From assembly GCA_044344255.1 (NCBI GenBank), contig JBIJDH010000002.1, positions 64,001 through 128,000 of the forward strand: a stretch of 64,000 bases of DNA, written 5' to 3'. Shown piece after piece: positions 40,794-46,087 of this stretch (position 1 is its first letter; the number at the start of each line of letters is the position of its first letter). A program made the position numbers and the translations under genes. The notes under the pieces are model-generated. The model did no database searches and was not told the DNA's origin. It was given only the letters and a program-made list of their open reading frames with translations. Source of the stretch: Myxococcota bacterium (GTDB lineage Bacteria; Myxococcota_A; UBA796; UBA2385).

Positions 40794-41525
40794 TCAGAAC
40801 CACTTGCAGGCCTTCTCGCTCAAGTAGTTGAGCGCCGTGTCGTTGATCTGGCCCGTGGCGTATGGGGTGCCCGACTCTGCGTAATAGAGGAGCGTGGTGC
40901 CGTCGCCCTTGTCGAGGACCGCGTAGGCTGTGGACCAGCTCTCTTCGCCCTCGAAGAGGCCCTCCGGGCAGTCGGTCTGGGTGATGTCGATCGAGGCGCT
41001 GACCTGGAGCCCGAAGTCGCAGGCCGCGCAGGCGCCGGTGCTCGTCTCCGTTGCGCTCGTGAGCCAGGTGATCACACAGTCGTCCTCCCCGGTTGCCTGC
41101 CAGGCCGCGTTGGAGAAGAGGATCCACTGCTCGAAGCCGCTCCAGCCACCCGCGCCGTCGGAGCGGAGCTCGCCGTACCAGTAGCTGGCGGCGCCGGGGA
41201 TCGGGGTGCCGTCGTAGTCCTCACAGCCACCCTGATCGAGGCCGACGCGGAGGTCGTCGAGGCCGGTGCCGTCGCCGCCGTCGCCGCCGTCGCTGCCGTC
41301 GCCGCCATCCGAGCCGTCTGCGCCGTCGCCGCCGCCGTCATTGCCGCCGTCACCGCCATCTGCCCCGTCGGTGCCATCTGTAGAGGAGGTCCCCGTCTCG
41401 CTGGCGGTGGGCTTGCCACTACAGGCGCCGAGCGCGGTGAGCGCGGCGAGCAGGCTGAGCGGCCAAGCCCTGCGAGATCGCGGGGTGCAGGCAAGGGGGA
41501 CCACCAGTTCAAGGCGCGTCGTCAT
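40794..41525 (-). CDS. Cys-rich lipoprotein with GGDG linker (paralog of next gene)
   Basis: ALGAC lipobox; CVITW, GACAACD, CPEGL, LNYLSEKACKWF. Confidence 0.8.
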   Translation of the reverse strand: MTTRLELVVPLACTPRSRRAWPLSLLAALTALGACSGKPTASETGTSSTDGTDGADGGDGGNDGGGDGADGSDGGDGSDGGDGGDGTGLDDLRVGLDQGGCEDYDGTPIPGAASYWYGELRSDGAGGWSGFEQWILFSNAAWQATGEDDCVITWLTSATETSTGACAACDFGLQVSASIDITQTDCPEGLFEGEESWSTAYAVLDKGDGTTLLYYAESGTPYATGQINDTALNYLSEKACKWF

Positions 41526-41527
41526 GG

Positions 41528-42184
41528 TCAGAACCAGTTGCACTTGTGGTTGGAGACGTAGTTGAGCTTACCGCCAGAGTGGTAGCCCTGCCCCAGCATC
41601 TTCCCGCTCTTGTGGAAGAAGACGGTCGTGGTGCCGTCGGACAGCCGCTTGATGTCGTACTGCTCGTCCCAAGGTTTGGCCTCCTTCTTGACGAGGCCCT
41701 CCACGCACTTGCTGGCGTTGATGTTCGGCTCGCCGTGCACCTTCACGGAGAGGTCACAGTCGCCGCAGGCGCCCACCGTGCTCGTGAAGCCCGTGACCTT
41801 CCAGGTGATGTCGCAGTCGCCGCCCCCGCGGGCCACCCACTTCGGGTTGGCGAAGAGGATCCAGCTCTCGGAGCCGCTCACGGCGTTACCGTTGATGGTG
41901 AGCTCCCCCGAGAAGTAGCCGTCAGCGCCTTCGTTTCCGGGGCCGTTGTCACAGAGGCCGCGCTGGAGGGTGGCCTTGAGGTCGGGCAGGGCGCCCTCGG
42001 CGATGGGGGAGGGGGGAGCGGCAGGAGCGCCGGCCTGGGCGGTCCCCACCTCGGCGGAGGGCGCCGCGGGGGCGGCGAGCGGGGTGGCCTCCGCGCCTTC
42101 GGGTTGGTCGCCGCCCGCGCAGGCGAGGGCCGAGAGGGCCAGGAGGGCGACCGTCGTGGGGAGGAGCCAGCGCACCCGTTCCAT
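41528..42184 (-). CDS. Cys-rich lipoprotein (paralog of previous gene)
   Basis: ALAC lipobox; CDITW, GACGDCD, CVEGL, LNYVSNHKCNWF. Confidence 0.8.
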   Translation of the reverse strand: MERVRWLLPTTVALLALSALACAGGDQPEGAEATPLAAPAAPSAEVGTAQAGAPAAPPSPIAEGALPDLKATLQRGLCDNGPGNEGADGYFSGELTINGNAVSGSESWILFANPKWVARGGGDCDITWKVTGFTSTVGACGDCDLSVKVHGEPNINASKCVEGLVKKEAKPWDEQYDIKRLSDGTTTVFFHKSGKMLGQGYHSGGKLNYVSNHKCNWF

Positions 42185-42282
42185 GTGTACTCCGTGCCCT
42201 CGATGATAGCGCGAAGCCGAGGGACGCGCCCCGCTGACAGCCCCGAAGTGGACAGGGTAAGGAGGGCCTCCAGGAGGTGCTC

Positions 42283-43344
42283 ATGGCCGCTCGACCCTCG
42301 CTCCCTCGCCGCGTCGCGTCCGCGCTCGGTCGGTCGCTCTCCGCCGCGCTGCTGCTCGGCGCCCTCAGCCTCGCCCCCCGGGTCGCGGTGGCGCAAGATC
42401 TCGGCTTCGGCTTCGTGCCCTCCCCTGCCGCCGGAGAGAAGCCCGCCCTGCTCATCACGCCCGAGCGGGCCGTGAAGGAGCTCCACGTCGAGATCACCGC
42501 CGGCGGCAAGAGCTGGACCTTCGACAAGGTCAACCAGGCGGCTGGAAAGCAGATCCGCCTCTCTTGGGATCGAGACACGTCGGTCACGGAGGCGGAGGCC
42601 TTCGTCCGCGCCGTCTTTCCGGACGGCTTCGTGGGCGAGTACAACGTGCCCATCCGCTACTCGTACGGCGAGCGACTCTCGGTCGACCTCAGCCGCGCCA
42701 CCGCCGACGTGAGCAAGCGGACCCTGAAGGTGAAGGTCACCGCCAAGGTCGACACCGCCGACATCACCGCCTACGGCGCCAAGAAGGTGGTGGTTGATCA
42801 GAGCTCGGTGAGCGTGGGCAGCGGCCCGGGTGAGATCACGCTGCCCTGGGTGGGCGATCCCGCTGACGTCGTGCTGCTCGACGTCACCCTCCATGGCGGC
42901 TCGGCCTACACTGGCTTCACCTACTCCCCCTGGTTCCTCAACATCCCGCACGACGACGTGCTCTTCGACTCAGACTCGGCCAACGTCCCGCCCACCGAGT
43001 CCTTCAAGCTCGAGGCCACGCTGCGCGATCTCACCGACGTGCTCGACAAGTACGGCGACATCGTGCCGGTGAAGCTCTACATCGCCGGCTGCACCGACAC
43101 GGTGGGCGACGGCGCCCACAATAAGGACCTCTCCACCCGTCGGGCCAAGGCCATCGCCGTGTGGTTGAGGGCGCACGGCTACGACAAGCCCATCTTCTAC
43201 CATGGGTATGGCGAGGGTTTCCTCGCGGTCCCCACCGGAGACGGCGTGGACGAGGCGCGCAACCGCCGCGTGCTCTACATGGTGGGAGCGAACCCACCGC
43301 CCCCCGGCTCCGGCGTGCCGGGCGGGAGCTGGGTCGCCCTCTGA
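42283..43344 (+). CDS. OmpA C-terminal (peptidoglycan-binding) domain protein
   Basis: VLFDSDS, IAGCTDTVG, NKDLSTRRA, GYGE, ARNRRV. Confidence 0.9.
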   Translation: MAARPSLPRRVASALGRSLSAALLLGALSLAPRVAVAQDLGFGFVPSPAAGEKPALLITPERAVKELHVEITAGGKSWTFDKVNQAAGKQIRLSWDRDTSVTEAEAFVRAVFPDGFVGEYNVPIRYSYGERLSVDLSRATADVSKRTLKVKVTAKVDTADITAYGAKKVVVDQSSVSVGSGPGEITLPWVGDPADVVLLDVTLHGGSAYTGFTYSPWFLNIPHDDVLFDSDSANVPPTESFKLEATLRDLTDVLDKYGDIVPVKLYIAGCTDTVGDGAHNKDLSTRRAKAIAVWLRAHGYDKPIFYHGYGEGFLAVPTGDGVDEARNRRVLYMVGANPPPPGSGVPGGSWVAL

Positions 43345-43378: not shown

Positions 43379-44584
43379 ATGCGCCTTCGTCGTGACGCCG
43401 TTGCCCTGATCCTCGGGACCTCCGCCGTGGTCATCGGCGGGATGGCCTTCAGCGCGAACCGCCTCTTCTCCAGCCAGATGGCCGAGATCGAAGCGGGCCA
43501 GTTCAAGTTGCTGCGGACGATCGTCGACTTCAACCTGCAAGGCGGGCAGGAGCGAGCGCTCTCTCGGGCCGAGCTCCTCGCGGCCACCCCGGCGATCCGG
43601 GAAGCCTTCGCGTCCGGCGACCGCGATCGCCTGCTCTCGGACACTCAGGCCCTCTTCGAGATCCAACGAGACAAGTACGGCCTCGATCAGCTCCAATTTG
43701 TCACCGCAGACAACGTCTCCTTCCTCCGCGTACACAAGCCGGAGAAGTTCGGAGACGACCTCTCTTCCTTCCGGCCCATCGTGGTGGCGGTCAACCAGGA
43801 CCACGTGGCACGTCGGGGCATCTCGCTCAGCCGCACCGGCCCTGCGCTGATGGGCGTGGTGCCGATGCTCACCCCTGCGGGAGAGCCCGCAGGCCTCGTC
43901 GAGATGGGCCTCGACTTCGGGCCGGTCCTCGACCGCTTGAAGGCGACCTACGGCTTTGACCTCACCTTCTTTGTTCAGGAGGAGCCTCTTCGCGCCGTCG
44001 CGACCAGCGTCGATCCCGCCGTGCTGGACGAGACGAACCGCGTGGGGGCCTACCTCAAGTACCACTCCACCAACTGGGAGCGGATGCGGGGCCTCGTGTC
44101 GAGCGAAGACCTCGCCGCCGTCTCGGGCGACAGCGTCGAGTACACCCGCGAGAACCTCGGCGTCCCCTACGGCGTCGTGATGGTCTCCCTCAAGAACGCC
44201 GCGGGCGACCCCATCGGGGTCGTGGCGAGCGCGAAGGACTTTAGTGACACCCGCGCGGCCGGCGGTCGGGTGGCGGTCGTGCAGGCCGCCTCCTCGATCT
44301 TCGGGCTGATCGTGTTGGCGGGGGCCGTCGCCGTCGCGATCAACGGCTTCCTGCTCCGACCGCTGCGCGCGCTCTCCGACGCGATGGCGGCGCTCGCGGC
44401 GGGAGATGCCGGCCGGGTCGTCGATCTGACCGGCTCCTGTGAGGAGCTGGCCGTCGCCGCCGACCGCTACGAAGCGCTCCGCGCCTCGGCCGCTCGACCG
44501 CTCGGCCGGTCGCAGGCCATCGAGGAAGGGTCGGTGACCGACGAGGTGCCCCGGCCCGGCCCGAACACGGCACGCGGAGCATGA
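43379..44584 (+). CDS. Two-TM Cache (dCache_3-like) + HAMP sensor with no output domain
   Basis: SFLRVHKPEKFGDDLSSFRPIV, GLVEMG, TM2, RPLRAL...LAAGD...EELA; stops about 30 aa after HAMP. Confidence 0.85.
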   Translation: MRLRRDAVALILGTSAVVIGGMAFSANRLFSSQMAEIEAGQFKLLRTIVDFNLQGGQERALSRAELLAATPAIREAFASGDRDRLLSDTQALFEIQRDKYGLDQLQFVTADNVSFLRVHKPEKFGDDLSSFRPIVVAVNQDHVARRGISLSRTGPALMGVVPMLTPAGEPAGLVEMGLDFGPVLDRLKATYGFDLTFFVQEEPLRAVATSVDPAVLDETNRVGAYLKYHSTNWERMRGLVSSEDLAAVSGDSVEYTRENLGVPYGVVMVSLKNAAGDPIGVVASAKDFSDTRAAGGRVAVVQAASSIFGLIVLAGAVAVAINGFLLRPLRALSDAMAALAAGDAGRVVDLTGSCEELAVAADRYEALRASAARPLGRSQAIEEGSVTDEVPRPGPNTARGA

Positions 44585-45672
44585 GCGTGAGTCCCCGCTG
44601 TCGCGCGCCCGCGCTCGCGGCCCTCGCGCTGCTCCTCTCCCTCGTCGGGCGTGACGCGGCGGCCAGTGACCGCTCGATCCCCATGGGCAAGGGGCTCCCC
44701 GTGGTGGTGCGCACGGGCGCCTACTTCCTTGACGTCGAGCAGGTCGACGACGCCACCGGCACCTTTGATGCCACCCTTGACCTCCGGATGACCTGGGACG
44801 ACCCCCGGCTGCGCTTCTCCGCCCGCGAGGCTCCCGCGGGCTTCCTGGACCTTCGTGACGCCGATGTCGAAGCCCGCCTGAGCGAGATCTGGTCCCCGCA
44901 GCTCGTGCTTCGAAACCTCGTGGGCGATCCGGCCTTCGTGACCGAGCGCCTCCGCGTCTACCCCTCCGGGCGGGTGGAGTGGATGCGGCGCACGAAGGGG
45001 CAGTTCCGGACCGACTTCGACGTCACCCGATTCCCCTTCGACCGGCAACGCCTGTCCGTCGACATCCTCTCCCGACAGGAGCCCACCTCCCGGTTGATCC
45101 TCGCCTATCAGCAGGCAGAGGTGGACTTCAGCCGGCACGCGAAGGAGCTGGCGGTTGTGGGCTGGCAGATCGGGGCGGTGGACCTTGTCCCGTCGACGGA
45201 GGTCGGCTGGGACGGGGACCGCCACTCCACCCTCAGCGCCACCTTGACGGTGGCGCGTGAACCCCTCCGCTCGATCCCGCCGATCTTCGTCCCGCTCCTG
45301 GCCTCTCTGATCATCCCCTTGATCGCGCTGTGGCTCAATCAGTGTGATGAGGAGGGTGAATTCAAGGTGGAGGCTTTCGAGTTGACGAATGTGTTGATCG
45401 GAGGGCTGTTCGCGTTGATCGCGCTCAACTTCACGATCAACTCCTCCTACCCGATGCTCGCGGAGGGCAACCCCGTCGCGACGCTCTTTGGCCTCAACTA
45501 CCTGCTCCTGGCCGTGAGCTTCGCCATCAACATCGGCGTGATGCGCTTCGGCGTCGTCAAGCGCCTGTTCGGCCCGCACGTCCAGGCTGCGGTCTTCGCG
45601 TACTGCGTTTGGGCCCTGCCAGCCGCGGTCCTCGTCTGCGGCGCCGCGATCGTCCTCCACGCGATGGCCTGA
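44581..45672 (+). CDS. Prokaryotic pentameric ligand-gated ion channel (GLIC/ELIC-like)
   Basis: Signal peptide, WDDPRL, IWSPQL, GRVEW, Pro-loop RFPFDRQ, GW, R before M1, four TM helices. Confidence 0.93.
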   Translation: MSVSPRCRAPALAALALLLSLVGRDAAASDRSIPMGKGLPVVVRTGAYFLDVEQVDDATGTFDATLDLRMTWDDPRLRFSAREAPAGFLDLRDADVEARLSEIWSPQLVLRNLVGDPAFVTERLRVYPSGRVEWMRRTKGQFRTDFDVTRFPFDRQRLSVDILSRQEPTSRLILAYQQAEVDFSRHAKELAVVGWQIGAVDLVPSTEVGWDGDRHSTLSATLTVAREPLRSIPPIFVPLLASLIIPLIALWLNQCDEEGEFKVEAFELTNVLIGGLFALIALNFTINSSYPMLAEGNPVATLFGLNYLLLAVSFAINIGVMRFGVVKRLFGPHVQAAVFAYCVWALPAAVLVCGAAIVLHAMA

Positions 45673-45733
45673 GGCCACGCCCCGAACGGGGCCCCCAGGG
45701 CGCCGCGCCTTCCGGGTGGCTAAGGCCTGTCCC

Positions 45734-46087
45734 ATGACGCCCGTGAAGCCCCCGTGCACCCATCGCCACCTCCTCGTCTGCACCAACGTCCGGCCGGACG
45801 GCTCCCCGAAGCCGAGCTGCGGTCGACAGGGAGGGGTCGAGCTCCGGGAGGCCCTGAAGATCCGGGTCAAGGACGCGGGGCTGAAGGGCGTCGTCAAGGT
45901 CACGGCGGCGGGCTGCCTCGACTACTGCCCCGCCGAGGGCGTGGTGGTCGGCTTCTACCCAGACGGTGACTACCTCATCGCCGACGCCGCCACCGAGGCG
46001 GACGCCCTCTGGACCCGGCTCCTCGAGGGGCTGCCGGCGGCGGATGCGCGCGGAGCGGCGGCCCTCCCCCGCGGCCCGTCAGCGTAG
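45734..46087 (+). CDS. Thioredoxin-like [2Fe-2S] ferredoxin
   Basis: HLLVCTN...SC...GCLDYC...VVGFYPDG. Confidence 0.9.
   Translation: MTPVKPPCTHRHLLVCTNVRPDGSPKPSCGRQGGVELREALKIRVKDAGLKGVVKVTAAGCLDYCPAEGVVVGFYPDGDYLIADAATEADALWTRLLEGLPAADARGAAALPRGPSA

Follow-up and report, generated by a model that had tools for sequence, protein, structure and literature searches.

A dCache_3 sensor that ends after its HAMP region and a pentameric ligand-gated ion channel are encoded by an overlapping gene pair conserved across bacterial phyla

What could a chemoreceptor-like membrane protein do when it lacks an output domain and its gene overlaps that of an ion channel? This question was raised by a two-gene locus in the window, the whole 64,000-nucleotide stretch of Myxococcota DNA analysed here (Table 1). 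The initial annotation had described a TM-Cache-TM-HAMP protein ending about 30 aa past the HAMP, followed through an ATGA stop/start overlap by a complete ion channel of the pentameric ligand-gated type (pLGIC), and all of these features were confirmed. The sensor P0001 matched Pfam dCache_3 with 95.5 bits (cut-off 25.7), the domain being located between two TM helices, and the domain search found no kinase, MCP or cyclase output domain. The match to Pfam HAMP was 18.7 bits, under the cut-off of 25. The segment after TM2 is nevertheless likely a divergent HAMP, as the best PDB match of the sensor-family profile was the Af1503 HAMP (profile positions 324-372, E 0.006), the hallmark positions P328 and E356 were present in 100% and 98% of the sensor HAMPs, respectively, and the structural model (pLDDT 88.5) showed a helix-connector-helix at residues 323-372 before a disordered tail of 29 aa. 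In the same model, the distal module superposed on CitA with an rmsd of 2.4 A over 127 residues and dCache folds topped the Foldseek list, while the sensor domains of DcuS and CitA were weak PDB matches of the family profile. The dCache_1AA amino-acid motif, given as YxxxxRxW...Y...D in the accessible text of PMC8915833, was not found in P0001 as far as its YxxxxRxW part is concerned, the only Trp having no Arg two residues before it.

Table 1. Coordinates in the window of the two genes, their features and the neighbouring ORFs
Feature	Position	Strand	Remarks
Sensor gene P0001, 401 aa	43379..44584	+	TM1-dCache_3-TM2-HAMP-29 aa tail; output domain absent
Sensor TM1, residues 7-25	43397..43453	+	after conserved basic N-terminus, consensus MxFRRxAP
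Sensor Pfam dCache_3 match, residues 59-209	43553..44005	+	membrane-distal module, CitA-like fold
Sensor membrane-proximal module, residues 201-231	43979..44071	+	E201, L204, N220, R221 and G223 conserved, clade-specific
Sensor TM2, residues 307-325	44297..44353	+	hydrophobic segment
Sensor HAMP (likely, divergent), residues 323-372	44345..44494	+	P328, G342 and E356 conserved; missing from sister clade
ATGA stop/start overlap	44581..44584	+	sensor TGA 44582-44584, channel ATG 44581
pLGIC gene P0002, 363 aa	44581..45672	+	signal peptide, beta-sandwich ECD, M1-M4
Channel Pro-loop FPFD, residues 151-154	45031..45042	+	P152 invariant in 101 rows
Channel loop C G209-W210	45205..45210	+	at least 90% conserved, main and sister clades
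Channel acidic M1-M2 hairpin insertion, residues 253-265	45337..45375	+	main clade only; about 9-10 aa longer than GLIC
Channel M2 pore helix	45376..45447	+	no basic residue at 0'
OmpA-domain gene	42277-43344	+	34 nt upstream of sensor; not recurring near related pairs
Small Cys-rich ferredoxin-like ORF	45716-46087	+	weak DUF1636; 43 nt downstream; not recurring near related pairs
Two adjacent, mutually similar lipoprotein-like ORFs	40794-41543, 41528-42184	-	Cys pairs, CxWF ending, no Pfam match

The channel P0002 matched Pfam Neur_chan_LBD with 60.5 bits and had a signal-like N-terminus and four TM helices. Its model (pLDDT 93) consisted of a beta-sandwich ECD and four TM helices, for which GLIC was the best match both by sequence and by structure (Foldseek TM-score 0.74/0.85, E about 1e-23); DeCLIC also matched structurally. 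The coupling residues of pLGICs described in the accessible text of Jaiteh et al. (PMC4795631), namely FPFD, W195, R226, P238 and P291, were all found in this channel. In the alignment to GLIC, W195, R226 and P238 were invariant, and P291, the M2-M3 Pro present in this copy, occurred at that column in only 29/94 clade members. No Cys was located around FPFD to form a Cys-loop disulfide, as is normal for prokaryotic members. The ECD carried the conserved charged residues D67, R69, R125, E133 and D180 in addition to W210 of loop C, so that the channel itself may possess a site for a ligand. In M2 of the main clade, E(-1') was present in 88/94 channels, N2', G6' and F9' in 94/94 and F16' in 92/94, and this channel carried G6'-G7'. 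E(-1') and the acidic hairpin, together with the missing basic residue at 0', G6'-G7' and F9'/F16', suggest a cation-selective pore, although the M1-M2 insertion blurs the M2 numbering of this channel and ion selectivity is described as poorly predictable in prokaryotic pLGICs in the accessible text of Jaiteh et al. (PMC4795631). Two distantly related (tier-2) channels, those of loci L225 and L257, had A-P-R before M2 in place of F-E-L, and ion selectivity may thus differ between forms of the cassette.

The overlap of the two genes was a common feature of related pairs, 131 of 149 of which overlapped by -4 and 7 by -1. When distinct junctions were counted, the -4 overlap accounted for 117/134, a number drawn from relatives and therefore not from independent samples, against a crude 425/1911 (22%) of the co-directional neighbours in the host genome. 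In the copy studied here, a GTG at 44587, two codons downstream of the ATG, had better spacing to a GGAG motif; the true channel start could thus lie there, and would still be coupled to the sensor. A search for a sigma-70 promoter of the cassette found none, and the one terminator-like site was at chance level. Six contigs of one freshwater metatranscriptome fell on both genes, although contigs cannot show transcription, and none of the six bridged the sensor-channel junction by 31 letters.

The early end of the sensor was shared by its family. Among the 153 related sensors with the stop in view (fetched loci, two frameshifted fragments left out), 150 ended within 40 aa after the HAMP, with a median of 6 aa. 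The sensor is therefore not the product of a local truncation, the reading against which the initial annotation had named this comparison as a check. Searches with the sensor agreed with this end point. The 88 matches of 220-702 aa were headed by 37 proteins (E <=6e-80, query included) of 295-430 aa with only dCache_3 annotated, after which E fell to 2e-29 with an MCP. Among the best 150 of 7526 representative matches, 55 of the first 84 spanned the whole profile and 55/55 of these ended within 28 residues past it, the first output-bearing protein among the matches listed scoring 190 bits. At one locus (L157, 835-2379), the sensor ran after the first HAMP helix into unrelated thioredoxin-like (CPPC) sequence; the contig ended in adapter-like sequence and may thus be chimeric. 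Another locus (L113, 5902-8852) contained two tandem sensor genes before one channel; the first of these genes has a repeated C-terminal tail and may be part of a degenerate duplicate.

Conservation of the pair in other genomes, the second check named in the initial annotation, was observed in both directions, and the sensor-channel pairing is near-obligate. In the channel-side survey, covering the best 80 of 162 genome loci, the sensor lay directly upstream in 77 by profile and in one more (L010) by its C-terminal end recognised by eye, i.e. in 78/78 testable loci, the two others having no upstream DNA. In the sensor-side survey of 79 metagenome loci from the best 80 of 175, six of which were cut by the contig end, the channel lay directly downstream in 72/73 testable loci with L157 as the sole exception. 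The named carriers belonged to Myxococcota, Alpha- and Gammaproteobacteria, Verrucomicrobiota, Acidobacteriota, Planctomycetota and others, and included the cultured Polaromonas, Brevundimonas, Azorhizobium, Rhizobium and Magnetospirillum. Across 251 genomes from the family that includes Azorhizobium, the sensor was upstream in 13/13 new channel loci (three with the main form, ten with the sister form described below), and 4/4 of the tier-2 output-less sensors seen in context preceded a pLGIC. A control set of 40 further pLGIC loci, drawn from three genome samples (21, 11 and 8) and including two with short flanks, had no sensor of this family, the only one sought, within about 1.5 kb. In the 27 output-bearing loci (L228-L254), the sequence ended before the next gene could be recognised, so that they provided no control. 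No conserved third gene was detected near the pairs, the top clusters being generic kinases and ABC ATPases.

The host genome itself harbored a second intact pair with a GTGA overlap (locus L256; G000:C7, 104469-105632 and 103276-104475, both on the minus strand), 38% and 41% identical to the pair in the window. Pfam PF02931 alone misses members, including this second copy. The presence of two paralogous channels in one genome raises the question of heteropentamers or partner specificity. The cassette was patchily distributed, with no copy detected in 60 host relatives, and a plasmid search gave no channel match and two sensor matches, both long receptors. A voltage-gated channel gene with a TLESW, TLEGW or TVGYG filter was seen in 12/149 pair loci from about three lineages. 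It was located downstream at +37 in L032, divergently upstream in L036, L038, L039, L051, L118 and L131, and was also present in L025, L054, L067, L100 and L101, overlapping the pLGIC stop in L067 and L100; such loci are possibly small electrical-signalling islands.

Unrooted FastTree trees, built with 22 of the 93 main-clade rows sampled and with L176 and L212 left out, placed the 35 paired channels in one group (support 1.0) against 38 unpaired channels, and 68 output-less sensors with one fusion protein in one group (0.996) against 86 long relatives. Sensor and channel distances correlated with r of 0.92 in 101 pairs and 0.83 in the 94 main-clade pairs, and 43/46 and 43/47 of the strong splits were shared between the two trees with one conflict. 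This agreement indicates joint inheritance and not contact, as it is expected of any adjacent co-inherited genes. The sister clade represents a second form of the cassette, in which the sensor stopped about 10 aa after TM2 and HAMP was absent in 10/10 loci, while nine of the ten junctions still overlapped by -4 and one by -1. The sister channel was about 27% identical to that in the window, without the acidic M1-M2 hairpin, F9' and G6'-G7'. Additional sensing domains were found in the output-less proteins P0224, P0252 and P0233 (4HB+dCache_3, 4HB+4HB+dCache_3 and tandem dCache_3, respectively), P0252 being the HAMP-less sensor of L257, whose gene overlaps the pLGIC gene by -4. Such additions to an output-less protein fit sensing better than chaperoning.

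The fusion in the sensor group, P0356 (790 aa), joined TM-dCache_3-TM-HAMP in frame through a short hydrophobic stretch to a pLGIC, with both halves intact. It was the only long protein inside this group and, with a single record and contig behind it, could result from an assembly error; the former signal peptide of the channel half may be cleaved or serve as a TM helix. A second candidate, P0357/P0358, was rejected as a frameshift artefact, its sequence being that of the L060 pair with a stretch out of frame.

The distal pocket of the sensor was conserved in the clade at H108, S114, R117, D127, R132 and E175, positions common to 87 long relatives, P0356 among them, and R117 was kept in 93/93 main-clade sensors; the copy in the window had V at position 108 and M at position 158. 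In the alignment, the latter position corresponds to the Arg in the 'GPAIRG' strand of CitA, a residue with a role in carboxylate binding. Position 158 was Phe in 85/93 main-clade sensors, whereas Arg was present in 87/87 long relatives, 7/7 sister-clade and 32/38 tier-2 proteins, the sister clade thus keeping the second pocket Arg. In view of this replacement, the main-clade sensor likely binds another ligand, possibly an acid of lower charge or greater hydrophobicity. Conservation specific to the clade was also observed at membrane level (F288, R292, consensus W301-Q302 and R322-G323), and these residues, together with those of the proximal module, are candidate channel-facing surfaces. The proximal module had a median length of 105 aa in output-less sensors and 88 aa in long relatives, although a longer module was rejected as an exclusive mark of the former, as 23/85 long relatives also had 103-106 aa.

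These findings make some functional partnership of sensor and channel, be it through sensing, assembly or trafficking, or as a hand-over subunit, highly probable. The two-part module proposed in the initial annotation is in this sense well supported by the two-way adjacency and the output-less relatives of the sensor. More specifically, we favour with moderate confidence the reading that the membrane-anchored dCache_3 protein is an accessory ligand-sensing subunit, acting on the channel via periplasmic and membrane contacts. Observed here were the architecture, the coupling, the joint inheritance, the intact distal pocket and the lack of a third conserved gene. The overlapping genes constitute a self-contained cassette whose translational coupling presumably delivers sensor and channel together for assembly, and the sensor would sit against the co-translated pentamer. 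The distal module would bind a small solute of the carboxylate type, one that probably carries less negative charge than the di- and tricarboxylates of CitA and DcuS in view of the second Arg replaced by Phe or Met in the main clade. Solute binding would then shift channel gating, the sensor binding the pentamer and gating it in trans, as we infer. The signal may pass sideways, from the proximal module and TM helices to the outer ECD/TM surface of the channel, rather than down the HAMP, whose only role may be to dimerise the sensor. Indeed, since the sister clade and some other members have no HAMP, it is dispensable there and probably not the coupling element. With a cation-selective pore and a Phe gate at 9' and 16', as predicted, the output would be a change in ion flux or membrane potential.

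Points against this accessory-subunit reading include the possible ligand site in the channel's own ECD, with its charged residues and W210, and the HAMP, which implies a two-fold dimer and so has no simple match to five-fold symmetry. Sensor-channel covariation (MI-APC, 94 pairs, Neff 76) gave only noise, inter-chain pairs making up 47% of the top 60 versus 50% expected. Contact of the HAMP with the acidic M1-M2 hairpin was considered, as both are absent in the sister clade, but found no support because tier-2 pairs have a HAMP without the hairpin. A wider evolutionary picture is offered more tentatively. A widespread and mobile pLGIC clade may have outsourced ligand recognition to a chemoreceptor-derived dCache_3 subunit that docks and gates in trans, with sensor domains that can be swapped or stacked, and dimers of the HAMP form could cross-link pentamers into clusters.

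The near-obligate pairing could also be explained if the sensor, by analogy with alpha2delta, were mainly a subunit for assembly, trafficking or stability, its ligand tuning the number of channels more than their gating, which we consider rather unlikely. Tight translational coupling suits co-assembly, the main clade has lost one carboxylate-binding Arg, and a pocket mutation of alpha2delta-1 lowers the current through trafficking according to the accessible text of Gumerov et al. (PMC8915833). Against this stand the conservation of the remaining pocket, the accumulation of extra domains on the sensor, and the 40 other pLGIC loci without a partner of this family. Moreover, GLIC-type channels assemble without a partner. 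Unlikely, too, is a role of the Cache protein in capturing or concentrating a solute for delivery to the orthosteric site of the channel, with no allosteric coupling, even though such a delivery would suit the conserved ECD residues, charged and aromatic, that lie close to the subunit interface and that we take from the GLIC alignment to map to loops D, E and C. This idea appears in the accessible text of Tasneem et al. 2005 (PMC549065). Cache pockets, however, are buried, and the two-TM anchor carries the clade-conserved residues F288, R292, W301, Q302, R322 and G323 of the consensus, which suggest contact at membrane level.

The well-kept hallmarks of the HAMP, P328 and E356, raise the alternative that the sensor signals through it to a separate cytoplasmic protein, in the manner of a split chemoreceptor or kinase, with the channel merely co-regulated. 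Output-less HAMP receptors do exist, Af1503 being, as we assume, devoid of an output domain. This reading is nonetheless improbable, as no third gene is conserved, the post-HAMP tail has a median of 6 aa, and the coupling to the channel stays where the HAMP has been lost (10/10 sister-clade loci and L257). That the sensor is a truncated chemoreceptor relic hitch-hiking with the channel gene is very improbable and already largely refuted. The sub-threshold HAMP score and the patchy cassette, found in 0/60 host relatives, would agree with decay, but intact frames, invariant residues and the -4 overlap persist across pairs down to 22-45% identity and many phyla, and both copies in the host genome are intact pairs. 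The accessory ligand-sensing subunit thus remains the reading that we prefer.

Little is known about the natural stimuli of bacterial pentameric channels or about the roles that they play, and the cassette offers a direct way in, as ligands of its soluble dCache_3 domain can be sought by routine thermal-shift screening. Gating by the sensor, if it occurs, would be a new mode of pLGIC control through a separate subunit for sensing, would account for the silence that such channels may show when they are expressed on their own, and would provide a modular chemical-to-electrical sensor. Gating in trans, if true, would make the sensor the first auxiliary subunit with a ligand-sensing role for any pentameric channel, and a bacterial equivalent of alpha2delta.

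Among known systems, GLIC (22% identity), ELIC and DeCLIC share with this channel the fold and the coupling residues FPFD, W195, R226, P238 and P291; its clade differs from them in having an M1-M2 insertion and a GG in M2 and in lacking a basic residue at 0'. No separate partner of GLIC, ELIC or DeCLIC was described in the literature searched, and the accessory domain of DeCLIC is fused and periplasmic in the portions of its description that were accessible. Chemoreceptors and kinases with dCache_3 have in common with the sensor the TM-dCache_3-TM-HAMP front end and R117, whereas the sensor has no output domain and carries Phe for the second Arg in 85/93 members; ion channels do not figure among the associations given for dCache_3 in the accessible part of the survey of Upadhyay et al. 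2016 (PMC4822843). Alpha2delta and CACHD1 resemble the sensor as a working analogy, in being dCache-bearing, membrane-attached and encoded apart from the channel that they modulate, and are unlike it in their dCache_1 domain with the amino-acid motif, their VWA domain and the other channel superfamily that they serve. Full-text literature searches, with subscription papers outside their reach, found no description or test of this HAMP-bearing sensor-channel family.

The closest precedent was given by Tasneem, Iyer, Jakobsson and Aravind (Genome Biol 2005, PMC549065), whose accessible text describes Cache-fused pLGICs and, from Rhodopseudomonas only, a predicted operon that pairs a stand-alone Cache gene with an ART-LGIC, the two products being proposed to cooperate. 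Like the present cassette, this operon joins a stand-alone Cache gene to a pLGIC of simple architecture with cooperation proposed, and unlike it, was reported for one bacterium, the sensor of its likely clade ending after TM2 without a HAMP. The R. palustris channel rows in the accessible part of the Jaiteh 2016 supplement carried signature stretches of the sister clade, whose channels fall in one group with that of the window, and the sister form is thus very likely the operon mentioned by Tasneem et al. The idea of cooperation is therefore older than the initial annotation implied, and the surprise is limited, the pairing having been foreseen in 2005 for one genus. What is new relative to that work is the breadth of the pairing, its near-obligate coupling, the HAMP form and the altered pocket.
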